Shown: positions 2,779 through 21,326 of the stretch, one piece after another
Layout of the letters: each line of letters begins with the position of its first letter
Numbering within the stretch: the first letter of the stretch is position 1
NCBI GenBank assembly: GCA_027533455.1
Contig: JAPZUC010000005.1
Coordinates: forward strand, 30,175 to 94,174
Direction of reading: 5' to 3'
Source of the DNA: Porphyrobacter sp.
GTDB lineage: Bacteria; Pseudomonadota; Alphaproteobacteria; Sphingomonadales; Sphingomonadaceae
DNA length: 64,000 nucleotides
Program-made: the position numbers and the translations under genes
Notes under the pieces: generated by a model
Databases searched by the model: none
What the model was told of the DNA's origin: nothing
What the model saw: the letters and a program-made list of their open reading frames with translations, nothing else

Positions 2779-3446
2779 ATTATTGGCCGCTGGCGGGGAT
2801 CGCCATCGTCGTTCTCGGCTTTGCCCTGCGCTTCAATCCGCTGCTGGTGGTGGTCAGCGCCGCGCTCGCGACTGGCGTGCTGGCGGGGCTGGACCTGCTT
2901 GCCGTGATCGAGGCGCTGGGCAAGGCCTTCAACGACAACCGCTATATCTCGGTGACATGGATCATCCTGCCGGTGATCGGGTTGCTCGAGCGATACGGCC
3001 TCCAGCAGCGCGCCCGCGCCGTGATCGAGGGGATGCGCGGGGCGACGATGGGCAAGCTGCTGGTCGCCTATCTCGCCTTCCGCCAGATCGCCTCGGCATT
3101 GGGGATGAAGGATATCGGCGGCCACCCGCAAGCCGTGCGCCCGCTGGTCGCGCCGATGGCGGAAGCCGCTGCGATGAAGACCCACGGCGACCTTGACGAA
3201 GCCGCGCGCGACGAGGTCAAGGCGATGGCTGCGGCGACCGACAATGTCGGGCTGTTCTTTGGCGAGGATATCTTCTTCGCCATCGCCTCGATCCTGCTGA
3301 TCCAGGGCGTGTTCGAGGCGGCTGGCTATCCGCTCACGCCCTTGGAACTCTCGGTCTGGGCGATCCCGACCGCGATCTGTGCGTTCCTGATCCACGCAGG
3401 GAGGATCCTCGCCTTCGACCGGCGGCTGGGGAGGGCGGGGAAGTGA
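2775..3446 (+). CDS. DUF969 membrane protein, predicted 5-oxoproline transporter subunit
   Basis: Hydrophobic 223 aa with GLLERYGL, GGHPQAVRPL and DNVGLFFGEDIF; 4-bp overlap with oxoprolinase. Confidence 0.85.
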   Translation: MNYWPLAGIAIVVLGFALRFNPLLVVVSAALATGVLAGLDLLAVIEALGKAFNDNRYISVTWIILPVIGLLERYGLQQRARAVIEGMRGATMGKLLVAYLAFRQIASALGMKDIGGHPQAVRPLVAPMAEAAAMKTHGDLDEAARDEVKAMAAATDNVGLFFGEDIFFAIASILLIQGVFEAAGYPLTPLELSVWAIPTAICAFLIHAGRILAFDRRLGRAGK

Positions 3447-4393
3447 TCACCTATGAATGGCTCTATGTGCTCGCCGGGGCGGCCTTTGCGGTCTGGGCGG
3501 CGCTGTCCGCGAAGGACGGGCGCTGGGGCAATGCCGCCTTGTGGGCGCTGCTGTCCGCCAGTTTTCTGCTTGGCAGCCACTTGTCCGATATGGCCAACGG
3601 CGTGCTGGTGCTGGCGCTGGTGGCGATTGCGGGGCTGGGCGGCTTGAAGCGCAGCGATCCGCTGACCACCTCGCCGCAGGAACGGCAGGCCCACGCCGAA
3701 AGCCTCGGCAACCGGCTGTTCCTGCCCGCGCTGGTCGTGCCGTTGACGGCGGTCGCGGGGACGCTGCTCTACAACTACACGCCTTTCGGCGAGACCGGGC
3801 TCTTCGAGGCGCGGCGCGAGACGCTGATCCTATTCGGCATCGGGGTACTGGCGGCACTGGCGGGAGCGATGCTCTGGCTGCGTCCGCCGCTGTTAGCTCC
3901 TGCCGAGGAAGGGCGGCGGCTGATCGATTCCATCGGCTGGGCGGCAATCCTGCCGCAGATGCTCGCCGCACTGGGCGCGGTGTTTGCGCTTGCGGGCGTG
4001 GGTGAGATCATCGGCGGCATCGCGGGCGGGATCATCCCCGAAGGCAGCGTGTTCCTGACCGTGGTCGTCTTCGCCCTCGGCATGGCGGGTTTCACGATGA
4101 TCATGGGCAATGCCTTTGCCGCCTTCCCGGTGGTGGCCGCTGCCATCGGCATTCCGCTGCTGATCGAGACCTATGACGGCAATCCGGCGGTGATCGGCGC
4201 GGTCGGGATGCTCGCAGGCTTCTGCGGTACGCTGCTCACGCCGATGGCGGCGAATTTCAACATCGTGCCGGCTGCGCTGCTCGAACTGAAAGACCAGAAC
4301 GCGGTGATCCGCCAGCAGGTGGGCACGGCGGTGCCGCTGCTGGTGTGCAATATCGTGATCATCTATGTGGGGGCGTTCTGGCTGTGGAACTGA
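3443..4393 (+). CDS. DUF979 membrane protein, predicted 5-oxoproline transporter subunit
   Basis: Polytopic 316 aa with LPQMLAALG, MGNAFAAFPV and CGTLLTPMAANFNIVP; coupled to DUF969. Confidence 0.85.
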   Translation: MITYEWLYVLAGAAFAVWAALSAKDGRWGNAALWALLSASFLLGSHLSDMANGVLVLALVAIAGLGGLKRSDPLTTSPQERQAHAESLGNRLFLPALVVPLTAVAGTLLYNYTPFGETGLFEARRETLILFGIGVLAALAGAMLWLRPPLLAPAEEGRRLIDSIGWAAILPQMLAALGAVFALAGVGEIIGGIAGGIIPEGSVFLTVVVFALGMAGFTMIMGNAFAAFPVVAAAIGIPLLIETYDGNPAVIGAVGMLAGFCGTLLTPMAANFNIVPAALLELKDQNAVIRQQVGTAVPLLVCNIVIIYVGAFWLWN

Positions 4394-5373
4394 CCGAGGA
4401 CACTGCCCGCAAGTTTGCCCGCGTGGCACTGGGCCATGTGGCGCGGGCCTATCCCTACAAGGACGACCACGTGTTCAGCGGGCCGGAAGACCTGCGGCTG
4501 CCGCAAGACGCGCATCCGGTGTTCTTCGGCAGCTTCGACTGGCACTCCTGCGTGCATGGCTGGTGGACGCTGCTGACCCTGCGGCGGCTCTACCCTGCCA
4601 TGCCCGAGGCCGCGCAGATCGAGGATTTGGCCAAGGCAACCTTCACGCCGGAAAAACTGGCGGCGGAGCTGGCATACCTCGACCGCCCCTCCGCGCGCGG
4701 GTTCGAGCGGCCCTACGGCTGGGGCTGGCTGATGTATCTGCACCACGAGGCCGAGCGGCATGGAGACAAGGCGTGGGGCGAACGGCTCGAACCGCTGGCC
4801 GGCGCCTTTGCCATACGCTTGCGCGATTACCTCCACATCCTCACCTATCCGATCACCGTCGGCACCCATTTCAACACCACCTTCGCGCTTGTGCTGGCGC
4901 GGCGCTGGGCGGTCAGCCGTGATCCGGATCTGGTGATCCTCATCGATGACTGGGCGACACGCGCCTTCTGCCACCGCCGCGATTACGCCGGGTGGGAGCC
5001 GGGGGGCGACGAGTTCCTGTCCCCCGTTCTCACCGCCGCGCTGCTGATGGCCGAGGCCTTGCCGCACCTTGCCTTCGCACCTTGGTTCGAGGCGCTGGTG
5101 ATCGAGAACGGCTGGCTGCAACGCGAATGCCGCCCGGTCACTGTCTCCGACCGCAGCGACGGCAAGATCGCCCACCTCGATGGGCTGAACCTCAGCCGCG
5201 CATGGTGCCTTGCCGCCATCGCCCGCGCGCTGGGCCGGACAGCGCCGGACGACATCTTGCAGCGCCTCGCGGAGGAACACCTCGCCGCCGCGCTGCCCCA
5301 TGTCGAGGGCGACTACATGGGCGAACACTGGCTGGCGAGTTTCGCGCTGCTGGCCCTGCTGCCCGAGGGTTGA
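4384..5373 (+). CDS. DUF2891 family protein
   Basis: HPVFFGSFDWHSCVHGWW, FERPYGWGW, HLDGLNLSRAW and YMGEHWLASFA; start moved to the in-frame GTG at 4384 overlapping the DUF979 3' end. Confidence 0.85.
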   Translation: MELTEDTARKFARVALGHVARAYPYKDDHVFSGPEDLRLPQDAHPVFFGSFDWHSCVHGWWTLLTLRRLYPAMPEAAQIEDLAKATFTPEKLAAELAYLDRPSARGFERPYGWGWLMYLHHEAERHGDKAWGERLEPLAGAFAIRLRDYLHILTYPITVGTHFNTTFALVLARRWAVSRDPDLVILIDDWATRAFCHRRDYAGWEPGGDEFLSPVLTAALLMAEALPHLAFAPWFEALVIENGWLQRECRPVTVSDRSDGKIAHLDGLNLSRAWCLAAIARALGRTAPDDILQRLAEEHLAAALPHVEGDYMGEHWLASFALLALLPEG

Positions 5374-5497
5374 GCAGCGCTGACCCTTCGACCGTAGGGT
5401 AACGTCTTGACGAGCGCGGCAAGTTGACCGCGTGCCGGTGTCTGTTAGCCTCACGCGCAACAAACACCCACAAACGGGTGACAACGGGGAGAGAACC

Positions 5498-6991
5498 TTG
5501 CGCCAATTGCAGGGAATGGATGCATCCTTCGTCGCACTGGAAACGCGCAACTCGCCGATGCACATCGGCTCGATCCTGATCTACAATCCGGAAACCGCGC
5601 CCGGCAGCTTCGTGCGCTTCAAGGATATCCTGCAATTCATCGGTGAGCGCGCGCAATTGAGCCGCACGATGCGCCAGCGGTTGGTGCGGGTGCCGTTCGA
5701 TCTCGATTACCCTTACTGGGTAGAGGATCCGGACTTCGATCTCGAATATCACGTACGCCACGTCGCCCTGCCGCAGCCGGGTGACTGGCGGCAGTTGTGC
5801 ATTCAGGCCGCGCGCATCTTCGCCCGGCCGCTCGATCTCGACCGCCCGCCTTGGGAATTCACCGTCGTCGAGGGACTCGACAATGTCCCCGGGGTTGCCA
5901 AGGGCAGTTTCGCTATGGTCACCAAGGTGCACCATTCGGCCATCGACGGGATGAGCGGGATTGACCTGATGGAGGCGCTGCACACCCTGCACCCGAACGA
6001 TCCTCCGCCCTCAACGCCCGATAACTGGAAGCCGGGGCGGATTCCCAATCCCATCAAACTGCTGGGCAAAAGCTACTTCAACGCGGTTACCAATCCGCTC
6101 AAGCAGCTGGAAGTGGCCGCTAAGGCCGCGCCGGGCCTTGCCAAGGCGATCAAGGGCCTGGTGGTGAAGGACTTCACTGTCAGCGCGGATATGCTGGCGC
6201 CCAAATCGCGCTTCAACCGCACGATCTCGCCGCACCGCGTGGTTGAAGGGCGCAGCTTCAAGCTGGCTGACATCAAGGCAATCCGCGCGCTTGCGGACGG
6301 TGCGAAGGTCAATGACGTGTTCCTCGCCATCATCGGCGGGGCCATGCGCAAATATCTGCTGGCGAAGAACGATCTGCCGAAGAAAACCCTGACCGCAATG
6401 GCGCCGATCTCGGTCCGCTCCAGCGGCGAGAAGGGCGACATGGGCAACCAGGTCGCCGCGATGATCGCGCCATTGGGCACCCATATCGAAGATTCGGCCG
6501 AACGCCTCGCCTTCGTATTCTCGCAGACCGCCAACTCCAAGGCCATGTCCGATGCCATCGGCGCGCGTAATATGACCGAGATGAGCAAGGTCTCGCCCGC
6601 CCTGTTCATGGCGCTGGGCGCACAGCTTTACACCCGGCTCGGCCTTGCCAATCGCGGGGTCGCGCCGCCGTTCACCACGGTGGTGACCAACGTCCCCGGC
6701 CCGCCGGTGCCGATCCACTTTGCTGGGGCGCGGCTGGAAAGCATGATGGGGCTGCTGTGCCTGACCGACGGTCTCGGCCTCGGCCATGTGGTGCAAAGCT
6801 ATACTGACGAGGCGACCATCGCCTTCACCGCCGACCGCGAACTGCTGCCCGATCCCGATTTCTACGTAAAATGCATCGAGGATAGTTTCGCGGAAATGCT
6901 GGCTGCTACGCAGACAGCCTCGGCCCCCAAGCAGGACAAGCCCGCCGCCCCCAAGCGCAAGCGCGCGCCGGCGAAAGCCAAGCGGGCATGA
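5498..6991 (+). CDS. Wax ester synthase/diacylglycerol acyltransferase (WS/DGAT)
   Basis: Catalytic HHSAIDG, plus PLDLDRPPWE and VTNVPGP; TTG start chosen after GGGGAGAG RBS. Confidence 0.9.
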   Translation: MRQLQGMDASFVALETRNSPMHIGSILIYNPETAPGSFVRFKDILQFIGERAQLSRTMRQRLVRVPFDLDYPYWVEDPDFDLEYHVRHVALPQPGDWRQLCIQAARIFARPLDLDRPPWEFTVVEGLDNVPGVAKGSFAMVTKVHHSAIDGMSGIDLMEALHTLHPNDPPPSTPDNWKPGRIPNPIKLLGKSYFNAVTNPLKQLEVAAKAAPGLAKAIKGLVVKDFTVSADMLAPKSRFNRTISPHRVVEGRSFKLADIKAIRALADGAKVNDVFLAIIGGAMRKYLLAKNDLPKKTLTAMAPISVRSSGEKGDMGNQVAAMIAPLGTHIEDSAERLAFVFSQTANSKAMSDAIGARNMTEMSKVSPALFMALGAQLYTRLGLANRGVAPPFTTVVTNVPGPPVPIHFAGARLESMMGLLCLTDGLGLGHVVQSYTDEATIAFTADRELLPDPDFYVKCIEDSFAEMLAATQTASAPKQDKPAAPKRKRAPAKAKRA

Positions 6992-7824
6992 CCGCCCGCA
7001 AGACCCGATCAACGAAGGACGATAGCATGGCAACAATGGCAGCGGTGGAAGCCGAATTCGATCAGGCGGCCCGACCGCCACACCGGTTCTGGACGTTCGC
7101 CGAAGGGCGCGCCTTCTTCGAGCTCGGGGCGTTCTACATGAGCCGCCCGTTCCTTTCGACCCTGCCTAAGGGTGACAGCCACGCAGTGCAGGTTCTCCCC
7201 GGCTTCATGGCCACCAACACATCGACCAGCCCGATGCGCCGCCTGCTGCGTGATCTGGGCTATGACGCCCACGGCTGGGACAGCGGGCGCAATGTGCGGG
7301 TCGACAATGCGCTGATCTCGCGGCTGGAAACGCAGCTGCAGCGTCTTAACGACGATACGGGTCGCAAGGTCTCGCTGGTGGGGTGGAGCCTCGGCGGAGT
7401 GCTTGCGCGTGAACTCGCCAAGCTTCACCCGGAGCGTGTGCGGCTGGTGATCAGCCTCGGCAGCCCGATCTCGGATGATCGCAACCATACCAGCGCTGCG
7501 CGACTGTTCGAACTCCTGAACGGCAAGGAGCCCGAGGCGATGAAGGGCGGACGCTTCCGCGGTCTCGACAAGGCCCCGCCGGTGCCGACCACCTCGATTC
7601 TCACCAAGACCGATGGCATCGTCCACTGGCGCGGCTCGGTGCAGAAACCGCAGGCGACCCCGACAGAGAATATCGAGGTCTATGCCAGCCATTGCGGGCT
7701 TGGCGTGAACCCCAGCGTCATGATGGCGATTGCCGACCGGCTGGCGCAAGGCGAAGGGCAGTGGCAGCCGTTCGAGCCGTCACTGGCGACCCAGTGGATG
7801 TTCCCCAGAACCAGCCTCGACTGA
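6988..7824 (+). CDS. Alpha/beta hydrolase (lipase/esterase-like)
   Basis: VLPGF oxyanion motif, GWSLGG nucleophile elbow, DGIV and SHCG; 4-bp overlap with WS/DGAT. Confidence 0.8.
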   Translation: MTARKTRSTKDDSMATMAAVEAEFDQAARPPHRFWTFAEGRAFFELGAFYMSRPFLSTLPKGDSHAVQVLPGFMATNTSTSPMRRLLRDLGYDAHGWDSGRNVRVDNALISRLETQLQRLNDDTGRKVSLVGWSLGGVLARELAKLHPERVRLVISLGSPISDDRNHTSAARLFELLNGKEPEAMKGGRFRGLDKAPPVPTTSILTKTDGIVHWRGSVQKPQATPTENIEVYASHCGLGVNPSVMMAIADRLAQGEGQWQPFEPSLATQWMFPRTSLD

Positions 7825-7829
7825 CAGCT

Positions 7830-8567
7830 TCAGCGGGCCGCGCTCGCCGCGGCGTAGCGCACCGAGACCTTGGCCCAGTCAACCACCTGCCACCATCCGT
7901 CGAGGTAATCGGCGCGGCGGTTCTGGTATTTGAGGTAATAGGCGTGTTCCCACACGTCATTGCCCAGCACCGGCGTGCCCTTTGCCTCGGCCACGTCCAT
8001 CAGCGGGTTGTCCTGATTGGAAGTGGAGGTGATGGCAAGCTTGCCGTCCGCGCCCACGATTAGCCACACCCAGCCTGACCCGAACCGGGCAGTACCGGCG
8101 GCCTTGAAGGCGGCCTTGAACTTGTCCATCGATCCGAACTGCGCATCGATCGCGGCGGCCAGCCTTGGCGAGATCGCGCTGACCTTAGCGACAGGAGCCA
8201 TCGTCTCCCAGAAGAAGGTGTGGTTCCAGTGGCCGCCGGCATTGTTGCGCACGGCAGGCGCCAGCGTGCCCGCCTTGGCGACCAGCGCATCGAGGCTCTG
8301 CCCCGCCAATGCAGGATCGGCGGCTACGGCCTTGTTCAGGTTGTCGACATAGGCCTGGTGGTGCTTGGAGTGGTGGATCGTCATCGTCTGCGTGTCGATC
8401 ACCGGCTCCAGCGCGTCATAGCCATAGGGCAGCGGGGCAAGGCTGAAGGCGGCGGGCGCGGGGGCAGCCGCCGGGGCCGGAGCAGCAGCGGTCTGCGCCT
8501 GCGCAGGCGAAAGCGCGAGGGCGGCGGCGCTTGCAAGGAAGAGGGTGAGAGCAAGGGGGCGGGTCAT
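7830..8567 (-). CDS. sodA: Fe/Mn superoxide dismutase, Mn-type signature, with signal peptide
   Basis: HHSKHH, NNAGGHWNH and DVWEHAYY ligands; GG and NQD are Mn-type residues; hydrophobic leader ending AQA plus Ala/Pro linker. Confidence 0.9.
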   Translation of the reverse strand: MTRPLALTLFLASAAALALSPAQAQTAAAPAPAAAPAPAAFSLAPLPYGYDALEPVIDTQTMTIHHSKHHQAYVDNLNKAVAADPALAGQSLDALVAKAGTLAPAVRNNAGGHWNHTFFWETMAPVAKVSAISPRLAAAIDAQFGSMDKFKAAFKAAGTARFGSGWVWLIVGADGKLAITSTSNQDNPLMDVAEAKGTPVLGNDVWEHAYYLKYQNRRADYLDGWWQVVDWAKVSVRYAAASAAR

Positions 8568-8787: not shown

Positions 8788-9118
8788 ATGCCCTTCATCG
8801 CCCCGGCAACATCGCTGGAAGAGGCCTTTCTTGGCAATCGCGAGCGGCTGCAGCGTTTCCTGCGCGCGCGCGGAGCGGGGGAGGGGGCCGAAGACCTTCT
8901 GCAGGACCTGTGGCTGCGCTTTGCCGCCGCGCCCGATCCAGCAGCGGCCTGCGGGCTGGCCTACATGATGCGCGCCGCAGACCGCCTGATGATCGCCGCT
9001 ATCGCTCGGCCCGGCAGGCGAGCCACCGCGATATCGCATGGGCCGGCACCCAGTCGGGCCTTGCCGACAACATCGCCCCCGCCCAGACCCCCGTCAGCGC
9101 GGTGCTTCATGTGAAACA
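8788..9118 (+). pseudogene. ECF sigma factor remnant (frameshifted, sigma4 missing)
   Basis: Region-2 motif AEDLLQDLWLR; adding one base near 8995 restores MIDRYRSARQASHRD; no region-4 helix-turn-helix follows. Confidence 0.6.
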
Positions 9119-9429
9119 TCGCTCTGGATGGCGACCATGTAGTCGACCACCTGAGCCGCCGCAGCATCATCGACCGGAGCCTTGTATAGCTTGCGCATCT
9201 TGCCGATGATCGACTCCCACTTCTCGCGGCTGACCTTGGGCTGCTGGAGCATGGTCGAAGGCGAATGGCAGGCGGTGCAGTTTTCCAGCACCACATCGCG
9301 GCCCGGGCCATCGGGAAGCTCATTGGGATCATCGGGTGGGGTGATGCTGGCGTCCTGAAAGTTCACCGTCGGCGCGCGGTCGCAGGCGGCGATCAGCAGG
9401 GTGAGCGGGAGGAGCAGGGCGGCTCTCAT
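9094..9429 (-). CDS. Monoheme c-type cytochrome lipoprotein (SorB/SorU-like acceptor)
   Basis: Start moved to MRAALLLPLTLLIAAC (lipobox); CTACH and distal KM; 4-bp overlap with the molybdoenzyme gene. Confidence 0.8.
   Translation of the reverse strand: MRAALLLPLTLLIAACDRAPTVNFQDASITPPDDPNELPDGPGRDVVLENCTACHSPSTMLQQPKVSREKWESIIGKMRKLYKAPVDDAAAAQVVDYMVAIQSDVSHEAPR
9103..9118. other. parS-like palindrome TGCTTCATGTGAAACA
   Basis: 14/16 match to the parS consensus TGTTTCACGTGAAACA; lies in the last codons of the cytochrome c gene. Confidence 0.45.
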
Positions 9430-10637
9430 TGCGCCACCAGAGTGATGCGTTCGATCACGTTGCGGGCATAGCCCGAAGGGTTCCAGACGAGCGCGTCGGG
9501 CTGTGACAAGCCATTGGCATTGGTCGACTTCGCACCGATTCCGGTCAGGTTGCCTGACACATTCGGCAGCGTCACGCTCCAGCGGCGAAAGGCATAGGGG
9601 CCGTGTTCGTCCGGCCCGAGTTCGCATGGGACGCTCCACCCGTCGCCCACCAGTTCGACCTTGGCGAGACCCTTGTCCCCGCCGAACGCCAGCCCCTCTA
9701 GCGTCAACGGTGTGCCCTTCGTCACCGTGTCGCCATCGGCATGGCTGGTGATAAAGCTGCGCGGCGGCATCGCGGTGATGGGAGCAGTCGGGAAGTCCTT
9801 ACTCTCGGGCGTCACTGGCACCTTGGGCCAGCGGTAAGTATCTGCCATATAATGGCTTTCGTCCTCATGCTCGAGCACCTCTATGGTGCTCAGCATCTTC
9901 ACCCAATAGGTCGAGAACCAGCCCGGCACGACGATCCGCAATGGGAAGCCGTGGAGGATCGAAAGCGGCTCGTCGTTCATCGCCCAGGCGACCAGCACAT
10001 CATTGCTCTGGGCCATCTGTGTGGGCAGGGATTTGATGAACTGCGGCGCGCCATCGGTCAGCGGCACGTCGAGACCGGCGAAGCGGACACGCTTCGCACG
10101 GGGCGAGATGCCGCCTGCCTTGGCGAGCACATCGCGCAGCCGCACCCCGGTCCACTTCGCGCAGGCCATCGCACCGTTGCCCCACTGGGTGCCGGTCACG
10201 CGAGGGGTCGACAGACCGCGCCCGTTGCCCGCACACTGGTTGACGGCGACGATCGAGACATGCTCGCCGGCCGCTGCGATCTCGTCGAGCGTCAGCGAAA
10301 CCGCTTTCTTCACCGCGCCGCCCACCGCCACGCGGTGCTCGCCCGCCTTCACTTCGGTGGGCATCGCCCAGTTCCAGCGGACGAAATGGCGGTCGTTGGG
10401 AGTGATCACGCCCTCGCGGAACGCCTCCATCGGGGCCTCCAGCAGTGGCGGGCGGATGCGCTGAACGATCATCTCGCGCTTGCCTGGAAAGTCTGGGGTG
10501 GTGGGGCGCAAGCTCGGCCCGCCGGGCAGGGCAAGGTCGATCATCCCGCCGCCCAGCTTCGCTAGCGCCGGTGCGGCCAGTGCCGTCGTCCCTGCGCCTG
10601 CAATGAGCGCGCGGCGGGTGAGGCGGCCCTCCGTCAT
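9426..10637 (-). CDS. Periplasmic sulfite oxidase-family molybdoenzyme (SorA/SorT-like sulfite dehydrogenase)
   Basis: Tat leader LTRRALIAG, Mo-ligand Cys in NQCAGNGR, WTGVRLRDVL, HGFPLRIVVPGW and C-terminal WNPSGY. Confidence 0.85.
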   Translation of the reverse strand: MTEGRLTRRALIAGAGTTALAAPALAKLGGGMIDLALPGGPSLRPTTPDFPGKREMIVQRIRPPLLEAPMEAFREGVITPNDRHFVRWNWAMPTEVKAGEHRVAVGGAVKKAVSLTLDEIAAAGEHVSIVAVNQCAGNGRGLSTPRVTGTQWGNGAMACAKWTGVRLRDVLAKAGGISPRAKRVRFAGLDVPLTDGAPQFIKSLPTQMAQSNDVLVAWAMNDEPLSILHGFPLRIVVPGWFSTYWVKMLSTIEVLEHEDESHYMADTYRWPKVPVTPESKDFPTAPITAMPPRSFITSHADGDTVTKGTPLTLEGLAFGGDKGLAKVELVGDGWSVPCELGPDEHGPYAFRRWSVTLPNVSGNLTGIGAKSTNANGLSQPDALVWNPSGYARNVIERITLVAQ

Positions 10638-11248
10638 GCGTCCGCTCCCTCCAGACGGGCGATCAGCGCGCCGATTTCAGCGACTTCGAGGCCATGGACG
10701 GCGATCAGATCGCCGATATCGTCGATCCGCGCCATCTCGCCATCATCGCGCATGATCGAGCAGATCACCGCCGCATCGCCCGCGCCCGCAAGGCGAGACA
10801 GGTCGATCGAAGCCTCGCAGGCCGAAGCCCGCTCCAGCACCCCGCCTGCCTTCGCGATCAGCGGGAAGACATGGCCGGGGGAGTGAATGTGCGCGGATGT
10901 GGCCGCTTCGGCAATTGCGACCTGCACGGTATGCGCGCGGTCTGCGGCGGATATGCCGGTGGAGACGCCTTCCGACGCCTCGATCGAGCGGGCGAAAGGC
11001 CGCCCGGTCTGGCGATCAGGCCCGGGGTTGACGAGGCTGAGGCTGAGCTGCCCGGCCCGCTCCGGCGTCACCGCAAGGCAGATCAACCCGCGTCCGTGGG
11101 TTGCCATGAAGTTGATCGCTTCGGGCGTGACGTGCTTGGCGGCGATCATCAGATCGATGTCGCCGCCACGCAACCGGTCGCCCGCGATGACGACGATCCG
11201 CCCGGCGGCAATCGCTGCCAGCGCCTTTTCAAGCGCGCCGCTCATCAC
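10634..11248 (-). CDS. RibB (DHBP synthase)-fold protein with degenerate active site
   Basis: INFMATHGRGLICLA, GVSTGISAADRA and PGHVFPL are RibB-like, but the RENEGD, GHTE and CE motifs are altered. Confidence 0.75.
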   Translation of the reverse strand: MMSGALEKALAAIAAGRIVVIAGDRLRGGDIDLMIAAKHVTPEAINFMATHGRGLICLAVTPERAGQLSLSLVNPGPDRQTGRPFARSIEASEGVSTGISAADRAHTVQVAIAEAATSAHIHSPGHVFPLIAKAGGVLERASACEASIDLSRLAGAGDAAVICSIMRDDGEMARIDDIGDLIAVHGLEVAEIGALIARLEGADA

Positions 11249-11817
11249 GCAAGATCCCGTCCGGCGGCGAAGCTCTTCGCGCCCAGCACCACCTGCTTGC
11301 CGACCAGTTCCAGCTGCCCGCGCGCGCGTTCATCAAGGCATTCGCCATCGGGGGAGAACAGGCCCTGATAGGTGCGGATCGTCGCCCCCATCGGGGTCGG
11401 CCAGCCGCGCAGTGCATGGGTGATGGCGCGCATGGTCAGCAGCGTGCTCATGGAGGCCTGATCGCCGAAAGCGGTGGCGATGAGGCCCACCGCGCGGCCA
11501 TCGAGATAGGGGCGCTCGTCGCACGCAAGGTCCTCAAGGTAATCGAGCGCGTTCTTGACCACGCCCGAGATCGTGCCGTGATAGCCTGGGGCAGCGACGA
11601 GAATTCCGTCCGCCGCGCGCACCGCCTCCACCATCTCGGCGCCCATCGCGGTAGTGTAGCCCGGCCCGCGATAATGGGCGAGCGCGGCCATGTATTCGCC
11701 GCCGAACACCGTCACCTCGGCGCCATCGGCTGCGGCGACGCTGGCGGCAAGGCGCAGCGCCTGCTCAGTCGAGGAGCCGGGGTTTACCGTGCCGCCGAGG
11801 GCTACGATTCGGGTCAT
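11245..11817 (-). CDS. NAD(P)H-dependent FMN reductase (SsuE/MsuE-like)
   Basis: GGTVNPGSST phosphate loop, PGYHGTISGVVKNALD and C-terminal GWPTP. Confidence 0.85.
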   Translation of the reverse strand: MTRIVALGGTVNPGSSTEQALRLAASVAAADGAEVTVFGGEYMAALAHYRGPGYTTAMGAEMVEAVRAADGILVAAPGYHGTISGVVKNALDYLEDLACDERPYLDGRAVGLIATAFGDQASMSTLLTMRAITHALRGWPTPMGATIRTYQGLFSPDGECLDERARGQLELVGKQVVLGAKSFAAGRDLA

Positions 11818-13304
11818 GCTAGGGAAGTCCTTTCAGAGAGGTAGGCCGCGAGGCGCGCGGTTTGTTCGGGCGTGAAGTGGAGGCCGAGCTTGGTGCGCCG
11901 CCACAGGATGTCTTCGGCGGTCTGCGCCCATTCGCTGGCGACAAGGTAATCGATTTCGGCAGCGGTCATACCGTGGCCGAAATCTTCACCAAGATCGGCG
12001 CGGGTTTTGGCATTCCCGAGAAAGCCGAAGGCCAACGTGCCGTAAAGGCGGATCAGGCGATGCGCTTCGACCGGCGAGAGGAAAGGGTAGCGGCGCTCAA
12101 GTTCCGCCATTTTCGCTCCCGCCTCGGTCATACCGAAATCGCCGCCGGGCAAGGATGCGGTGCCGGTCCAGTCCTTGCCTGTCAGCTTGGGCAGGAAGGG
12201 AGCAAGCTGCTCGACCGCTTCGGCTGCGAGGTGGCGGTAGGTTGTGATCTTGCCGCCGAACACCGACAGCAGCGGCGCTTCACCCTCCGCTCCGCCGTCG
12301 ATCTCGAAGCGGTAGCCACGGGTTGCCGCCTCGGGCTTGCCGGAACCATCATCGACCAGCGGACGCACGCCGGAATAGGTCCACACCACATCCGCCGGGG
12401 TTACGGGCTTGCGGAAATATTCGGAGGCGCCTTCGCACAGATAGGCGATCTCCTCGGCGCTGGCCTTCACCTCGGCCAAGCTGCCTTCGTGATCGACATC
12501 GGTGGTGCCGATCAGGGTGAAATCCTCTTCGTAAGGAATGGCGAAGAAGATGCGCCCGTCGGGCAGCTGGAAGAAATAGGCGTATTCGTGGTCGAACAGC
12601 TTGCGCACCACGATATGCGATCCGCGCACCAACCGCATCTTCTGCGCCGAAGGCTCGCCCGCGCGGCCCAGCAGGTCGAGCACGCGCGGGCCAGCGGCGT
12701 TGACCACGGCGCGGGCACGGAAGACCTTGCCGCCCGCTTCGATCCGCCACAGATCGCCTTCGCGCGTCAGGGCTGTGACTTCGCAGCGGGTGCGCACCTC
12801 GGCACCCCTGTCGGCAGCATCGCGGGCGTTGAGGATGACGAGGCGGGCATCGTCCACCCAGCCATCGGAATAGGCGAAGGCGCGGGTATATTGCGGCTTC
12901 AGCGGTGCGCCTGCGGGGTGGCGCGTCAGGTCGACGCCCTCGGCCGAAGGCAGGCGCTTCCTGCCGCCGATATGGTCATAGAGGAACAGCCCCAGCCGCA
13001 GCAGCCAGCGCGGGCGCAGGCCAGGGCGGTGGGGCAGGATGAAACGCAGCGGCCAGATGATGTGCGGCGCAATGCCCCACAGAACCTCGCGCTCGGAAAG
13101 GCTCTCGCGCACCAGAGCGAACTCGTAATGCTCGAGATAGCGCAGCCCGCCGTGGATCAGCTTGGTGGAGTTGGACGAGGTGCCCGTCGCCAGATCGCCG
13201 CGTTCCAGCAGCAGCACCTTGGCGCCGCGCCCGGCGGCATCGCGTGCAATCCCTGCGCCGTTCACGCCGCCGCCGATCACCGCAAGGTCATAGATCTGGC
13301 TCAC
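11814..13304 (-). CDS. glpD: FAD-dependent glycerol-3-phosphate dehydrogenase family protein
   Basis: IGGGVNGAGIARDAAGRG, TSSNSTKLIHGGLRYLE, YSGVRPL and GGKITTYR; start moved to GTG 13304 (GTGA overlap). Confidence 0.85.
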   Translation of the reverse strand: MSQIYDLAVIGGGVNGAGIARDAAGRGAKVLLLERGDLATGTSSNSTKLIHGGLRYLEHYEFALVRESLSEREVLWGIAPHIIWPLRFILPHRPGLRPRWLLRLGLFLYDHIGGRKRLPSAEGVDLTRHPAGAPLKPQYTRAFAYSDGWVDDARLVILNARDAADRGAEVRTRCEVTALTREGDLWRIEAGGKVFRARAVVNAAGPRVLDLLGRAGEPSAQKMRLVRGSHIVVRKLFDHEYAYFFQLPDGRIFFAIPYEEDFTLIGTTDVDHEGSLAEVKASAEEIAYLCEGASEYFRKPVTPADVVWTYSGVRPLVDDGSGKPEAATRGYRFEIDGGAEGEAPLLSVFGGKITTYRHLAAEAVEQLAPFLPKLTGKDWTGTASLPGGDFGMTEAGAKMAELERRYPFLSPVEAHRLIRLYGTLAFGFLGNAKTRADLGEDFGHGMTAAEIDYLVASEWAQTAEDILWRRTKLGLHFTPEQTARLAAYLSERTSLA

Positions 13305-14398
13305 CGGATCACCCACTCGGCAAAGGCGAGCGCCGTCACGAGCGAAGCGATGGTCGCCGCCAGCACCGGCATTACCGACCGCCAGCCGAGGCCGAGCAGA
13401 AGGTCAGTGCGGGTGCGCATTGCGGTGGCGGTAACCGCGATCAGAAGCAAAGTCTTGGACAAGGTCAGCGCGGCGCCGGCGATCTCGGCGGGCAGAGTGA
13501 CGAGCGAGTTCAGCCCCACCAGCGCCAGAAAGGCGAGGATGAAGCCCGGCAGCACCGGCACCCGCGCACGGCCCACGCCCGCGGGCAGCGGCTGGACGCG
13601 CGCGATCCACAGGGCGGCGAGCGTCACCAGCGGCGCCAGCAGGGCGACACGGGTGAGCTTCACCACGGTCGCCTGTGCGCCGGCCGCGTCGGACACGGCG
13701 AAGCCTGCGCCGATCGCTTGCGCAACGTCATGGATCGATGCCCCAACAAGGAAGCCCGCCTGCGCATCCGAAAAGCCGAGCATCTGGGTGAGCGGCGGAT
13801 AGGCGATCAGCGCGATGGCGCTGGCAGCGGCGAGGATCACCAGTGTCAGCGTGAACTGCGCCTGGTCGATCCGCTCGCGCCCGATCACGCCGTATAGCGC
13901 CAGCGCGGCCGAGGCTCCGCAGATCGCGGTCGCGCCGCCGCCGAGCAGGCCGATGGCGGGGCTTTGCCGCGTAAACCGCGCGGCGGCGAGGGCGGCGACC
14001 AGCGCCGATATCATCACCAGCGCAAGGCCGATGAAAGGCACCAGCCCCATCGCCACCACCTGCATCACCGTGACCTGAAAGCCGAGCAGCGCGATGCCTG
14101 CGCGAAGGCCGTGGCGCGACACCGCGTCCAGCCCGTCATGCGTGCGCGGATCACCGGAGGCGAAGTTGAGCGACAGGCCCAGCAGCAGTCCGGCAAGGAT
14201 CACCGGCACGCCGTAATTCTGGGCAAGCCATGCGGCAGCAGCGCCCGCGATGGCCGAGATGGCAAGCCCGGGAATGAAGCGCGAGAGCGGCTTCTTTTCC
14301 GCTTTGCCCGCGCCTGTCGCAGTGGTGTCGGCGAGCATGATTTCGCCGTACAGATCGCCTGCAAAAGCCTCGAAATCGGGGGCTGGCCCACGCTTCAT
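13301..14398 (-). CDS. YeiH/putative sulfate exporter family membrane protein
   Basis: ICGASAALA, GASIHDVAQAIGAG and VKLTRVALL; about 10 TM segments. Confidence 0.85.
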   Translation of the reverse strand: MKRGPAPDFEAFAGDLYGEIMLADTTATGAGKAEKKPLSRFIPGLAISAIAGAAAAWLAQNYGVPVILAGLLLGLSLNFASGDPRTHDGLDAVSRHGLRAGIALLGFQVTVMQVVAMGLVPFIGLALVMISALVAALAAARFTRQSPAIGLLGGGATAICGASAALALYGVIGRERIDQAQFTLTLVILAAASAIALIAYPPLTQMLGFSDAQAGFLVGASIHDVAQAIGAGFAVSDAAGAQATVVKLTRVALLAPLVTLAALWIARVQPLPAGVGRARVPVLPGFILAFLALVGLNSLVTLPAEIAGAALTLSKTLLLIAVTATAMRTRTDLLLGLGWRSVMPVLAATIASLVTALAFAEWVIR

Positions 14399-14479
14399 GC
14401 CTGATCGATCCTGCTCTGTCTCACGGTGTCACATCCCTATCCCGCACCGCATTCCTTTGCAACCATAGGCGGTGCGCGG

Positions 14480-15745
14480 TCAGTCGAACAGGCCTGCGTC
14501 TTCCACCGGGCGGCGGATCTCGGGAAGCAGCCACTGGAACCACGCCAGCGCCACGAGATAGGACCCGGCGGCGAAGACGAACAGCGGCACGAAGCCGAAG
14601 CCCGCATCGAGCACGCGGCCCGTTACCAGGCTGATCGTCACCCCGCCCATATTGCCCATGAACGCGCCGAACGCCGTCACCCGCCCGACCTTCGCGCCGG
14701 GCACCACATCGGTAATGGTCGAAAACAGCGAGAGCGAGAAGCCCTGATGTCCGGCCATGACCACGCCGATCATCACCGCCACCGGCCAGAAGGAATTGAG
14801 GCTCAGCACCAGCGGCAGCGGCAGCACGATCAGCGCACACCCCAGCATCACGCTCTTGCGGACACGGTTAGGGCTCCACCCGGCCTCCAACAGCCGCGTC
14901 GAAGCCCAGCCCGCCAGCAGCGCGCCGAGGCCTGATCCGGCAAAGGCGATGGCGAGCGGCACCGCTAGTTCAAGGGTCGAGAAACCGAAGACCTTGCGGT
15001 AGTAATCGGCGAGCCAGAAATTGATGAACCACCAGGTCATGTCCGACAGTGCCTTGGCGACGACGATCGCCCAGGTCTGGCGGTTCATCAGGATCGGACC
15101 ATAGGCCTCGCCCCCGGCGATCTCTGCTGCCGAGGTGCCGCCTCGCTCGTTGAGCTGCGACAGGCCACGCGCCAGCCACATCCACGCCAGAAGCGACAGA
15201 AAACCGCCGATCCCGCCTGCCACCAGCGCTCCGCGCCAGCCCACCGCCAATGCCAAAGCCGGAATGACAAACGGCATCCCGATTGTCCCCGCGCCGGCAA
15301 GCAGGGTGGCAAAGCCGAAGGCGAAGCTGCGCTTGTCGGGCGGGAACAGGGTGGCGACGGTCTTGATGGTCAGCGGCGTCTGTACCGCTTCGGTCACGCC
15401 CAGTCCGATGCGGGCGGCGACCACGTGGGCGGTCGTCATCGCCCAGCCGTGGGCCATCGCGGCGATCGACCAAGCGCTCGCGCCGACCTGCATCGACCGG
15501 TTGACCCCCAGCCGGTCGACCAGCCAGCCGGTGAACAGGAAGGCAAAAGCCGCGGAGAACTGCGTGACGGCTGCCAGATCGCCGAACTGGGTATCATCCC
15601 AGTTGAAGGCCGCCATCATGTCCGGCTTCAAGATGGCGATGATCGGCCGGTCCATCGCGTTGAATACCCCCGCGATGCACAGCACCGTGAACAGCGACCA
15701 GCGCAGCCGGGCGGAGATTGGCGAGGGGTGGGCAGCGGCCATCAC
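14480..15745 (-). CDS. MFS transporter, ExuT/ACS-like; candidate sulfoquinovose importer
   Basis: MDRPIIAILKP, GWLVDRLG, RIGLGVTEA and LFPPDKRSFA; 12-TM pattern. Confidence 0.8.
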   Translation of the reverse strand: MMAAAHPSPISARLRWSLFTVLCIAGVFNAMDRPIIAILKPDMMAAFNWDDTQFGDLAAVTQFSAAFAFLFTGWLVDRLGVNRSMQVGASAWSIAAMAHGWAMTTAHVVAARIGLGVTEAVQTPLTIKTVATLFPPDKRSFAFGFATLLAGAGTIGMPFVIPALALAVGWRGALVAGGIGGFLSLLAWMWLARGLSQLNERGGTSAAEIAGGEAYGPILMNRQTWAIVVAKALSDMTWWFINFWLADYYRKVFGFSTLELAVPLAIAFAGSGLGALLAGWASTRLLEAGWSPNRVRKSVMLGCALIVLPLPLVLSLNSFWPVAVMIGVVMAGHQGFSLSLFSTITDVVPGAKVGRVTAFGAFMGNMGGVTISLVTGRVLDAGFGFVPLFVFAAGSYLVALAWFQWLLPEIRRPVEDAGLFD

Positions 15746-15794
15746 GGGTTCCTAACGGGGCAGGGCGGACAAGAGCAAGCGTTGGCCGAGACAC

Positions 15795-15822
15795 AAAAGG
15801 CCGCCGGATCGCTCCGACGGCC
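15795..15822 (-). terminator. Intrinsic terminator/attenuator downstream of TonB receptor
   Basis: Minus strand GGCCGTCGGA-GCGA-TCCGGCGGCC followed by TTTT. Confidence 0.7.
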
Positions 15823-15847
15823 CTTGTGTTGTCATCGCCGGAGCGGA

Positions 15848-18175
15848 TCAGCGCGTCCGGACGCGCAGGCTCACGCCGAAGTAACGGTCGGCATCGCGTG
15901 GGATCTGCAGGCGGCGTCCGCCCTCGAGGTTAAGCAGCACGTAGCTCTCGTCCATGATGTTGCGGGCGTGCAAGGTCACACGATACTTGTCGTCCGCATC
16001 CGAAACGCCGATCGAGGCGTTCCACATCCCGTAAGGATCGATCCGGGTCGTGGCCGCCTGGCCAAGATCCGAATACTGGGTGCTGGTGTGGCGGTAATCG
16101 GTGTTGAGGTACAGCACCGCCGCATCGCCCAACTCCTTCGTGTAATCCCCGCCGATGGTATAAACGAACTCGGGCGCTAGCGGCAGCTTGGTCCCGTTGC
16201 GCGCGTCTGCCGCGCCGGTGGTGGGGTTCGGGTTGAACGCCTTGACCCGGGCATCGGCATAGGCTGCGCTGGCGCGCAGGTTCAGGCCGTCTAAGGGATT
16301 GATTACGAGGTCGGCTTCGAAGCCTTCGCTCTTGACCGTGCCCGCGTTGGTCAGGTTCGACACCGTCGCAGTGTTGACGACGATGAAGTTGTTCGCCTGG
16401 AACCCGTCATACTCGACCGTGAAGGCAGCAAGGTTGAACTGCACGCGGTCATCGAAGAACTGCGACTTCATCCCGATTTCGAAGCTGTCGGACAGCTCTT
16501 CGGAAATCGGCACCGCGTTGTTGGGCGCGGTGTGGTTGAAGAACACGTTGAAGGCCGGGCCCTTGTAGCCGCGGGTGTAGGACCCGTAGAACATAAGGTC
16601 GTCGCTCGGCTGGTATTGCAGAACGGCCTTGCCCGAAAGGTTGCCGTTGGTGGTCTCACCGCGGCTGGTATTGGTGCCATTGCCGCCGCTGGCAAGCGTT
16701 CCACCAGCCGGGTTGAGGTTGGTGCCCGGGCCAGCAGCCGGCAGGCCGGTGGCAAGGTTGATGGCCGGCGCGCGGGTGTGGGTGAATGCGAGATCATCCC
16801 AAGTGTAGCGCAGTCCACCGGTCAGCGAGAGCTGTTCGGTGAGGCGATAGGTCGCCTGCGTGAACACCGCGTAGTTCTGCGAACGCACGTCGCTGCGCGA
16901 GGTGGCCGAAGGGAACAGGGTGTTCACCGTGTCGGCCAGATTGCAGGGGACAGCCCCGCCAGGCAACGCCGCCAAGGTCGACGAGGCGCAGGTCACACCA
17001 TTGCGGGTGAAGTCCTGCGAGTTGTCCGATTGCCACGCGAACACGCCCGCCTGATAGAAGAACGGCTTGGTCTGGTCCGAAGCGATACGGATTTCGGCCG
17101 AGAGCTGCTCGGTCTTGACCACGCCGAGATCGTGCAGCTGGCCCGCCGTGGTGATCGCGCGCGGCAGGAAGTCGCCTTCGCGGTTTTCGGTGTTTTCCCA
17201 GTTGCGATAGCCGAGCACCGCACTGAGAGTGTGGGTGTCGCTGATCTCGAAATCGCCCGTCGCGGTCAGGCTCCACTGCTGGTCCTGCGTGCGGGTGTCG
17301 AGGTCGTGATTGACGAAGCGCTGGTCTTCACCAAGCGCCACGCCGCCGGGCAGAGCGAGCAGGGCATCGGCCACCGCGCCGCGGCTGGCGCCGGTCACGT
17401 CGGTGCAGCAATCGTCATCGGCGTTGTAGTAATCGGCGATCAGGCGCACGCGGTTGGCGCCGTCGTCGTAATCCATGATCCCGCGAACGCCATAGCGCTC
17501 GTAGCCGTTCACCTTGTTGTTGCGGCCGCCGTTGATGTTGGTGATGTTGCCATCGAAGGTGCCGTAGAAGCCGGTCAGGCGGGCGCTCAGGTTTTCACCG
17601 ATCGGGCCGGAGATCGCGGCGCGCAGGCGGTATTCCTCACCCTCGAACCAGTCGGCGTTGAATTCGCCTTCCAGCGTATCGGTGCCGCCCTTCGAGACAA
17701 TGTTGACGAGGCCGGCCGAGGCGTTACGGCCGAATAGCGTGCCCTGCGGGCCGCGCAGCACTTCGAGCCGTTCGAGATCGACGAGATCCATGAAGGCCTG
17801 ACCGGAACGCGAAAGCACCACACCATCGACAACGGTGGACACACTCGGCTCAGCCGCGACCGAGAAGGAGATGGTGCCGACGCCGCGCATCACGATCGCG
17901 CTGTTGGCGCTGGTGGTGCCCTTACGGAAGGTCACCGAGGGAACGACGGTCGAGACATTCTCGAGGCTGATGACGCCCGCCTGCTGCAGCCGGTCAGCCG
18001 AAACTGCGGCGATCGCGATCGGCACGTCCTGGACGTTTTCCTTGACCTTCTGAGCGGTTACAATGATTTCCTCGACCTGCGCAAAGGCCGGTGCGGCGGT
18101 GGCGAAAGCCAGCGTGCTGGCGGACAGGGCCAGTGCCTTGAGCGCAAGACGGTGCGCGATTCGGGTGGTCGGCAT
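15848..18175 (-). CDS. TonB-dependent receptor of the sulfoquinovose locus
   Basis: Signal peptide, TonB box EEIIVTAQK and plug LERLEVLRGPQGTLFGRNA; start moved to ATG 18175 behind AGAGGGGAG. Confidence 0.9.
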   Translation of the reverse strand: MPTTRIAHRLALKALALSASTLAFATAAPAFAQVEEIIVTAQKVKENVQDVPIAIAAVSADRLQQAGVISLENVSTVVPSVTFRKGTTSANSAIVMRGVGTISFSVAAEPSVSTVVDGVVLSRSGQAFMDLVDLERLEVLRGPQGTLFGRNASAGLVNIVSKGGTDTLEGEFNADWFEGEEYRLRAAISGPIGENLSARLTGFYGTFDGNITNINGGRNNKVNGYERYGVRGIMDYDDGANRVRLIADYYNADDDCCTDVTGASRGAVADALLALPGGVALGEDQRFVNHDLDTRTQDQQWSLTATGDFEISDTHTLSAVLGYRNWENTENREGDFLPRAITTAGQLHDLGVVKTEQLSAEIRIASDQTKPFFYQAGVFAWQSDNSQDFTRNGVTCASSTLAALPGGAVPCNLADTVNTLFPSATSRSDVRSQNYAVFTQATYRLTEQLSLTGGLRYTWDDLAFTHTRAPAINLATGLPAAGPGTNLNPAGGTLASGGNGTNTSRGETTNGNLSGKAVLQYQPSDDLMFYGSYTRGYKGPAFNVFFNHTAPNNAVPISEELSDSFEIGMKSQFFDDRVQFNLAAFTVEYDGFQANNFIVVNTATVSNLTNAGTVKSEGFEADLVINPLDGLNLRASAAYADARVKAFNPNPTTGAADARNGTKLPLAPEFVYTIGGDYTKELGDAAVLYLNTDYRHTSTQYSDLGQAATTRIDPYGMWNASIGVSDADDKYRVTLHARNIMDESYVLLNLEGGRRLQIPRDADRYFGVSLRVRTR

Positions 18176-18341
18176 AGTGTAATTCTCCCCTCTGGACATG
18201 ATCAGCTCTTTCGGGCGGGTGTTGCAGATTTCCGCCCGTGCGGTCGATCTTTGGCCTGTCGGGTTGCGCTGCCGGCTCGGCTATGTCAAGCGGTGTCAGA
18301 GCGAGCCAAGGGACAGGCCGGCAAAGGAATCCGGGACGGGA

Positions 18342-21325: not shown

Positions 21326-21326
21326 T

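Follow-up and report, generated by a model that had tools for sequence, protein, structure and literature searches.

Sulfoquinovose (SQ) is among the most abundant organosulfur compounds, and the sulfo-ASMO pathway, with its three core enzymes, was described only in 2021–2022. This SQ pathway, also termed SMO, is known from the smoA-I genes of A. tumefaciens and from SquD, SsuE and SquF of N. aromaticivorans (PMC8795539, PMC12890257). No RibB-like component has been described for sulfo-ASMO, and our literature search found no paper mentioning both sulfoquinovose and dihydroxy-2-butanone. Within a 64,000-nucleotide stretch of Porphyrobacter sp. DNA (the window), a 203-aa protein that has the DHBP-synthase fold without its metal ligands (RibB*; 10634–11245, minus strand; assigned from PF00926, PDB alignments, AF2 and Foldseek) is encoded in an SQ cluster directly after the FMN reductase. 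RibB* probably serves the SQ pathway as an undescribed helper rather than acting in vitamin B2 synthesis; literature searches on RibB pseudoenzymes, RibBX and SQ clusters returned no description of it.

Judged from its best structural matches, the locus is a sulfo-ASMO SQ cluster. A GH31 sulfoquinovosidase gene (SmoI/YihQ-like; 18198–20324, plus strand; best PDB matches 5ohy and 5ohs (YihQ), E 1e-225) is divergent from a minus-strand operon and is followed on the plus strand by a LacI-family regulator (20321–21325; LacI and Peripla_BP_3 domains), an aldo-keto reductase resembling the 6-oxo-glucose reductases SmoB and SquF (21327–22241; PF00248; best PDB matches 7bbz and 7bby, which we take to be A. 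tumefaciens SmoB, E 2e-56) and a luciferase-like, FMNH2-dependent monooxygenase resembling the SQ monooxygenases SmoC and SquD (22196–23326; PF00296). The monooxygenase matches PDB entries 7olf (E 4e-108) and 7oh2 (6e-106), while SsuD is far weaker (~1e-54). With the NAD(P)H-dependent FMN reductase of the minus-strand operon (11245–11817; PF03358 FMN_red, 82 bits) the sulfo-ASMO set of sulfoquinovosidase, monooxygenase, flavin reductase and SmoB/SquF-type reductase is complete within 10634–23326. An earlier note on this DNA had placed it in a sulfosugar context, which is borne out by the best PDB matches of the sulfoquinovosidase, monooxygenase and aldo-keto reductase. The locus thus has in common with described sulfo-ASMO clusters close homologues of these three enzymes as well as an FMN reductase.

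The remainder of the minus-strand operon departs from the described clusters. Its first gene encodes a TonB-dependent outer-membrane receptor (15848–18199; Plug and TonB_dep_Rec_b-barrel domains), also found by the cluster in related loci whose fetched stretch extends that far, and then come an MFS transporter (14480–15745; PF07690, 146 bits), a YeiH-family membrane protein and putative sulfite/sulfate exporter (13301–14398; PF03601, 157.5 bits; TIGR00698, 86 bits and sub-cut-off) and the aerobic glycerol-3-phosphate dehydrogenase GlpD (11814–13316; NF009906, 744.7 bits against a cut-off of 352). Downstream of the reductase and RibB* lie the molybdopterin subunit of a SorA-type sulfite dehydrogenase (9426–10637, minus strand; NF052245, 395 bits against a cut-off of 600; PF00174) and a SorB-type c-type cytochrome subunit (9094–9639, minus strand; NF052246, 63.7 bits over residues 97–170 only). 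The mechanically called SorB ORF overlaps SorA by ~210 nt, and the true SorB start therefore probably lies further downstream. Uptake here would involve the TonB-dependent receptor and the MFS transporter, whereas described sulfo-ASMO systems use an ABC system, and GlpD, YeiH and SorAB are built into the cluster, unlike in those systems. The GlpD of the cluster was considered as a specialised paralogue (e.g. for the sulfonate analogue DHPS), a reading set aside since it is the only GlpD of the genome, scores far over the equivalog cut-off and has GlpK present elsewhere. A scan of the whole window with Rfam returned no FMN riboswitch and no other RNA family.

RibB* lies on the minus strand, which the earlier note leaves unstated, and can be read from two starts, ATG giving 10634–11245 (203 aa) and GTG giving 10634–11248 (204 aa); the database entry is the 203-aa ATG version and bears the name DHBP synthase. 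Pfam DHBP_synthase (PF00926) matches at 204 bits, covering all but one of its 191 profile positions (190), and NCBIfam PRK14019 is the top-scoring model, while the RibB equivalog TIGR00506 reaches 175.6 bits, ~2 bits short of its cut-off of 177.45. The AF2 model (pLDDT 91.6) aligns in Foldseek with DHBPS structures at TM 0.88–0.93 (rmsd of 1.6–2.4 Å), and the alignment with known RibB, RibBA and RibBX proteins is gap-free at 39–47% identity: RibB* has the α/β fold of DHBP synthase (RibB). Its gene is joined to the FMN reductase by a TGATG (or GTGA) overlap and, at its stop codon, to SorA by an ATGA overlap, the GlpD/reductase junction being likewise an ATGA overlap; these overlapping junctions on both sides confirm the translational coupling that the earlier note had given for the intact ORF. 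The gene lies outside any rib operon and is not the sole copy in the genome, which encodes elsewhere a canonical RibBA whose motifs are all intact. RibB*, itself a paralogue of the RibBA/RibBX DHBP-synthase domain, is 47% identical to this RibBA and sits on a different branch of the tree.

The active site of RibB* was read from HMMER alignments, free of gaps, to the RibB of E. coli (1g57) and the RibBX of A. baumannii (6mnz). The acidic loop DDEDRENEGD becomes GDRLRGGDID, replacing E38 by G, E40 by D and D33 by G and leaving most of its acidic residues gone, R(G/A)GHTEA becomes RASACEA (H153 to A, T154 to C) and (L/I)CE(L/I) becomes ICSI (E174 to S). The ICL, PGHVFPL and GISAADR motifs are unchanged, and the putative acid/base residues D42, C67, H136 and E155 are retained, as is D34. 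The earlier note had listed E38, H153 and E174 as lost and the ICL, GH(V)FPL and ISAADR motifs as kept, and both lists stand in these alignments to solved RibB structures. It had also described the lost residues as metal-binding or catalytic, in agreement with V. cholerae DHBPS, where Glu39 and His154 are metal ligands and the E39A, E41A and H154A mutants are reported to be inactive (PMC5228156, PMC9305975). Because both metal ligands and E174 are lost, and the alanine mutants are reported inactive, RibB* is almost certainly not a DHBP synthase, as far as its sequence can tell.

Comparison of 143 canonical DHBPS domains with 29 members of the RibB* clade places these changes in a wider pattern. 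In the canonical domains the positions altered in RibB* are 96–100% conserved, with E at both 38 and 174 in 98% and H or Q at 153 in 141 (99%), and the combined loss at 38, 153 and 174 occurs in none of the 143. In the clade, by contrast, position 38 is G, R or E (G or R in the 29-member alignment; G in RibB*), position 153 is Ala or Thr (Ala in RibB*) and position 174 is Ser or Ala (Ser in RibB*). The 29 members show complete or near-complete fixation of G22, G28, D29, R82, P83, A142, S163 and R166, and an Arg-Pro in lid loop 2 is new and invariant. Of 61 columns that are at least 90% conserved in canonical enzymes the clade keeps 44, including R37, D42, C67, TGISAADR, PGH, R150 and E155, and most altered positions fall in the loop-1, H153 and E174 motifs. 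The pattern points to a pocket that is remodelled, not eroded.

The gene is also maintained by selection. Values of dN/dS for RibB* are 0.08–0.24 (12 pairs), a range equal to that of GlpD, GH31 and the TonB-dependent receptor, and the relaxed selection among homologues that would have spoken for decay is not seen in these pairs. The motifs are identical across 123 near homologues, and the substitutions are fixed in one clade over more than 120 metagenomic proteins and at least eight genera of the order sample. Eighteen of the 19 copies examined are intact, the exception being a same-genus genome (G249, locus L102) with a ~61-nt frameshifting deletion by which lid loop 1 is lost. By these substitution rates RibB* is under purifying selection, and with its essential catalytic residues lost it has the sequence hallmarks of a pseudoenzyme; the same dN/dS values and clade-wide fixed replacements bear out the earlier note, which had favoured a pseudo-enzyme over decay.

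In the tree the RibB* clade forms a single branch (SH-aLRT 100) on a long stem of ~0.75 changes per site, indicating a single origin. It is found only in the Sphingomonadales, mostly in Erythrobacteraceae. A RibB* profile tells the clade from canonical enzymes by score alone, and its search of 400 alphaproteobacterial genomes gave at best 249 bits or less, against 361 for the window protein, with no clade members outside the Sphingomonadales. One member (P0124, 313 aa) still has part of a second domain (GTP cyclohydrolase II or X), which in alignment extends into the linker of 6mnz; Pfam finds no match in this C-terminal extension, and the remnant is visible solely by the 6mnz alignment. Among proteins of 357–2000 aa, searched for fused or longer forms, the only matches were canonical RibBA, none above 59% identity, and RibB* was nowhere fused to the reductase, a weak negative. 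Conserved synteny in so narrow a clade is partly a matter of common descent.

The most constant neighbour of RibB* is the FMN reductase. In 19 of 19 contexts RibB* begins at −4 to +3 nt relative to the reductase stop codon, and the pairing holds over at least four operon layouts while the GlpD, YeiH, SorAB and monooxygenase junctions vary. SorAB stands downstream of RibB* in six loci only (the window, its three relatives of the same genus and two other Erythrobacter-like MAGs), so that of the two flanks named in the earlier note the FMN reductase holds throughout and the sulfite dehydrogenase does not hold as a constant neighbour. All 19 contexts are SQ clusters. Among a 301-genome sample of the order, each of the 13 RibB*-positive genomes (called at E ≤ 1e-55) also encodes a SmoC-like monooxygenase, as do three more with divergent RibB* copies. 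Reductase orthologues without RibB* exist inside SQ clusters (L133, L117) and outside them (L125–L128), and those outside SQ clusters all lack it. The protein is not required for the pathway: of 12 SmoC-positive genomes that lack a close RibB* and whose loci were inspected, neither gene lies within ~10 kb in nine, the reductase stands by itself in one and a divergent pair occurs in another. No residue distinguished the 19 reductases paired with RibB* from the 11 unpaired ones, and complex prediction for the FMN reductase and RibB*, run without controls, gave a score of 0.00, which speaks neither for nor against binding.

The reading we prefer, to which we assign a probability of roughly 45%, is that RibB* assists the reductase/monooxygenase step as an accessory protein that binds an anion without metal, and is not a riboflavin enzyme. 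RibB* keeps its fold together with the mobile lid loops and, at R37 and R150 (E. coli numbering), the pair of arginines that bind anions, while the di-metal centre would be replaced by a metal-free, far less acidic pocket with the Arg-Pro, and the riboflavin precursor would no longer be made. Translational coupling may set the ratio of RibB* to the NAD(P)H:FMN reductase, the pocket may bind an anionic pathway molecule (SQ, a sulfite/6-oxo-glucose adduct, or FMN), and RibB* would thereby aid or adjust how FMNH2 reaches the SQ monooxygenase. The inferred parts of this scheme are that a ligand is bound, which ligand it is, and that RibB* physically touches the reductase or the monooxygenase. A more specific form, which we regard as unlikely, makes RibB* a ligand-sensing subunit that binds SQ or the sulfite/6-oxo-glucose adduct and gates the FMN reductase, so that free FMNH2 is formed only when the monooxygenase has its substrate; if true, such a ligand-gated reductase would be a previously unknown control of a two-component flavin monooxygenase.

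The alternative that survives best, possible though doubtful in our view, is that RibB* is a neofunctionalised metal-free enzyme acting on a pathway intermediate through its retained acid/base residues and arginines, for example by interconverting the hydrate and hemiacetal of 6-oxo-glucose or by breaking an α-hydroxysulfonate (aldehyde-bisulfite) adduct for the SmoB-like reductase. Strong constraint on the pocket and on both lid loops, with new fixed residues, would suit such an enzyme, as would retention of D42, C67, H136, E155, R37 and R150 and the confinement of the gene to SQ clusters. The chemistry offers it candidate substrates, 6-oxo-glucose being an unstable mixture of hemiacetal and hydrate and an α-hydroxysulfonate intermediate being one proposed route (PMC8795539). 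However, an enzyme of this kind leaves unexplained why the linkage is to the reductase and not to the monooxygenase or aldo-keto reductase, many SQ clusters function without RibB*, including the characterised one of A. tumefaciens, and we found no literature precedent for metal-free catalysis in the DHBPS fold.

In the DHBPS dimer, loop 4 reaches over from one subunit to cover its partner's active site (PMC5228156). This suggests a different role, namely that RibB* acts like a prozyme, forming a heterodimer with the DHBPS domain of RibBA and turning riboflavin synthesis up or down when the flavin-demanding SQ monooxygenase system is induced. Regulation of active enzymes by their dead paralogues is a known theme (PMC5201418), and the invariance of TGISAADR (loop 4) and PGH, with changes mostly in the loop-1, H153 and E174 motifs, is what this would predict; but RibB* shares only 47% identity with its own RibBA and branches apart from it, the newly fixed R82, P83 and S163 would be superfluous for pure dimerisation, and strict adjacency to the reductase is again unexplained, leaving this role improbable.

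Rib genes sit in the lux-rib operons of luminous bacteria, and by analogy RibB* might still be a DHBP synthase with unusual residues that boosts flavin supply from the operon. This agrees with the database annotation, the strong Pfam match, the TIGR00506 score only 2 bits under cut-off and the retention of D34, E40 (as D), D42, C67, H136 and E155, yet it is made very improbable by the loss of the metal ligands (G/R at 38, A/T at 153) with S or A at 174, a combination found in 0/143 canonical domains, by the reported inactivity of alanine mutants at these positions, and by the complete canonical RibBA in the genome. The selection data weigh strongly against the least probable reading of all, in which RibB* is the functionless remains of an earlier RibB(X) gene under loss. 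This reading could draw on the frameshifted same-genus copy, the absence of the gene from many related SQ clusters and the stepwise reduction documented by the 313-aa member, but faces dN/dS values equal to those of clearly functional neighbours, 18/19 intact copies and replacements fixed over at least eight genera and more than 120 metagenomic proteins.

That Erythrobacter/Porphyrobacter-type bacteria conserve such a gene, under purifying selection and tied to the reductase, suggests that sulfo-ASMO has a component or control point not yet recognised. RibB* also sets an annotation trap, by which metabolic reconstructions could overcount the riboflavin pathway, and to enzymologists it would offer a natural case of a DHBPS pocket that has been rebuilt in metal-free form. 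We know of no catalytically remodelled RibB of this kind.

With canonical RibB the protein has in common the fold, R37, D42, C67, loop 4 (TGISAADR), PGH, R150 and E155, and it differs in lacking E38, H153, T154, E174 and most of the acidic loop while gaining the Arg-Pro of lid loop 2 and R166. Its best match in both sequence and structure is the RibBX of A. baumannii (6mnz; E 4e-52, 47% identity). In RibBX the RibB half has canonical motifs and the C-terminal GTP cyclohydrolase II-like half is the degenerate one, whereas RibB* is a single 203-aa domain in which the RibB half is degenerate and the second domain is gone. Among luminous bacteria, lumazine protein and yellow fluorescent protein derive from riboflavin synthase, and ribB/luxH occurs in lux operons. 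The likeness to RibB* would be one of analogy, a riboflavin-enzyme paralogue standing alongside a luciferase-like flavin monooxygenase and a flavin reductase, but the lux-linked proteins are riboflavin-synthase derivatives or active RibB, whereas RibB* is a remodelled RibB.

RibB*, a paralogue of the DHBP synthase RibB, is encoded on the minus strand by an ORF that is intact, as the earlier note had claimed, and runs through window positions 10634-11248 from a GTG or 10634-11245 from the ATG chosen in database entries (203 residues). The protein matches the Pfam DHBP_synthase family end to end (204 bits), and its confident AlphaFold2 model (pLDDT 91.6) fits solved structures of RibB at a TM of 0.88-0.93. 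Aligned without gaps by HMMER to E. coli RibB (1g57) and the two-domain A. baumannii RibBX (6mnz), the protein shows exactly the motif losses listed in that note and retains ICL, PGHVFPL and GISAADR. The acidic loop DDEDRENEGD is replaced by GDRLRGGDID (D33, E38 and N39 to G, E40 to D, G41 to I; E. coli numbering), RxGHTEA by RASACEA (H153 to A, T154 to C) and (I/L)CE(I/L) by ICSI (E174 to S). The altered positions are 96-100% conserved in 143 canonical DHBPS domains (position 153 counted as H or Q), while 44 of the 61 columns with at least 90% canonical conservation are kept, including R37, D42, C67, loop 4, PGH, R150 and E155. E38 and H153 correspond to Glu39 and His154 of the V. cholerae enzyme, the metal ligands supplied by the protein (PMC9305975), and the mutants E39A, E41A and H154A were inactive in experiments cited in PMC5228156. 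RibB* is predicted to be unable to hold the catalytic Mg2+, making DHBP synthesis by this protein very unlikely.

By homology, the neighbourhood is a sulfo-ASMO sulfoquinovose (SQ) cluster. On the plus strand lie genes for a GH31 sulfoquinovosidase (matching 5ohy at E 1e-225), a LacI regulator and an aldo-keto reductase (matching 7bbz at E 2e-56), followed by one for a luciferase-like monooxygenase that is matched best by the SQ monooxygenase entries 7olf and 7oh2 (E about 1e-108). Divergent from these, the operon on the minus strand consists of TonB-dependent receptor, MFS transporter, YeiH, GlpD, FMN reductase, RibB*, SorA, SorB, and the proposed translational coupling of RibB* is evident in overlapping junctions (reductase/RibB* TGATG, RibB*/SorA ATGA; also GlpD/reductase ATGA). 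GlpD (11814-13316, minus strand) is the sole glycerol-3-phosphate dehydrogenase gene of the genome, and the glycerol kinase gene glpK lies on a separate contig (C16), an arrangement that fits use of glycerol freed from SQ-glycerol; thus glycerol catabolism may be co-regulated with SQ-glycerol use. The SorB ORF (9094-9639) overlaps the preceding gene by ~210 nt with homology beginning at residue 97, and the monooxygenase ORF overlaps its predecessor by ~46 nt (22196-22241) with homology from about residue 19, so that both true start codons probably lie further downstream. An Fe/Mn superoxide dismutase gene downstream of SorAB (7830-8567, minus strand), which did not recur next to RibB* in any other locus examined, encodes ~40 additional N-terminal residues ahead of the Pfam domains, so the enzyme may be exported. 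Positions 1-7824 (plus strand) hold genes unrelated to RibB*: those for a hydantoinase/oxoprolinase fusion that is incomplete because the window starts within it, for DUF969, DUF979 and DUF2891 proteins, for a WS/DGAT wax-ester synthase and for an alpha/beta hydrolase.

In a sample of 301 Sphingomonadales genomes, 53 encode a SmoC-like monooxygenase, including all of the RibB* genomes (13 at E<=1e-55); divergent copies in three further genomes (L114, L129, L130) are recognised by context only, and no clade members were seen in 400 other alphaproteobacterial genomes. In 19/19 contexts (the window, 14 close loci, L114, L124, L129 and L130) the RibB* start lies between -4 and +3 nt relative to the FMN reductase stop codon, within an SQ cluster. 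Its proposed placement between flavin reductase and sulfite dehydrogenase therefore holds on the reductase side, but SorAB follows only in the six type A loci: the one in the window, plus L015, L016, L098, L099 and L102, which come from three genomes of the same genus and two related MAGs. These share the layout receptor-MFS-YeiH-GlpD-reductase-RibB*-SorAB, divergent from GH31-LacI-AKR-monooxygenase. Type B loci (L095, L096, L100, L101, L103, L104, L106, L107) form a single string, GH31-LacI-AKR-monooxygenase-GlpD-reductase-RibB*, without SorAB, and L105 has this arrangement without GlpD, which is absent from four of the 19 loci. Depending on the locus, the reductase-RibB* pair sits behind the monooxygenase or within the divergent operon, with YeiH ahead of or behind it. 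The converse of the linkage fails: reductase orthologues (57-72% identity) exist without RibB*, some of them inside an SQ cluster (L133, and L117 at 52% identity), and in many SQ clusters both genes are missing from the vicinity. Outside any SQ cluster, at L125:7998-10021 and L128:8024-10062, the reductase is paired with GlpD (62-72% identity to the window's pair) but not with RibB*, and no SQ genes lie within 8 kb. The association of the reductase with GlpD may therefore be the older one and functional in its own right, perhaps with the enzyme acting as a quinone or flavin reductase independently of the SQ monooxygenase.

Four features indicate that the pocket still binds a ligand, probably an anion, without metal: conservation of the two lid loops and of the pocket itself with new identities, retention of both phosphate-binding arginines, a shift in the net charge of the acidic loop from about -6 to -1, and the additional arginines R82 and R166. 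The restriction to SQ clusters and a coupled reductase junction unbroken through several rearrangements argue for a role tied to the reductase/monooxygenase step. Together these features lead us to favour, at a probability of about 0.45, an accessory ligand-binding protein that would support or tune FMNH2 supply. Some lineages evidently do without RibB*, as would be expected of a protein that optimises or protects the pathway and not of one that carries out a core step. The same pocket could instead belong to a new metal-free enzyme acting on 6-oxo-glucose or its sulfite adduct, a possible if doubtful reading. Prozyme-like control of RibBA, of which the genome encodes a canonical copy with every motif intact on another contig (47% identity to RibB*), is unlikely. 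Residual DHBPS activity is less likely still given the predicted loss of Mg2+ binding, even though RibB* scores only slightly below the cut-off of the curated RibB equivalog TIGR00506 (175.6 versus 177.45). That RibB* is a functionless relic is highly improbable, as the gene is not decaying: pairwise dN/dS among cluster-linked homologues, a check proposed in the earlier note, is 0.08-0.24, equal to that of GlpD, GH31 and the TonB-dependent receptor of the same loci.

Intact copies are present in 18/19 contexts. In the exception (L102:9725-9960, from the same-genus genome G249) an internal deletion of ~61 nt takes out lid loop 1 (residues ~23-43) and causes a frameshift; the gene is either naturally knocked out or misassembled, the genome being a draft of ~40 contigs. 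The replacement motifs GD..R(G/R/E)GD(I/M/L/V)D, R..(A/T).E(A/G) and (I/L)C(S/A)(I/V) are shared by 123 close homologues from Erythrobacter/Porphyrobacter and metagenomes (84-100% identity) and by all more distant members, with G22, G28, D29, R82-P83 (lid loop 2), A142, S163 and R166 fixed or almost fixed clade-wide, and the clade forms one branch (SH-aLRT 100) on a long stem. One 313-residue member, from a metagenome contig (L124:9001-9942), carries ~110 C-terminal residues whose alignment with 6mnz extends into its linker and the beginning of its second domain; they matched no family in a Pfam search. This extension appears to be a vestige of a GTP cyclohydrolase II or X domain, indicating that the lineage descends from a RibBA or RibBX gene with two domains.

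The SQ-pathway papers PMC8795539, PMC12890257, PMC10507154 and PMC13372026 describe no RibB-like gene, and a literature search found no paper containing both 'sulfoquinovose' and 'dihydroxy-2-butanone'. Public databases annotate RibB* as DHBP synthase, an assignment that is probably wrong.
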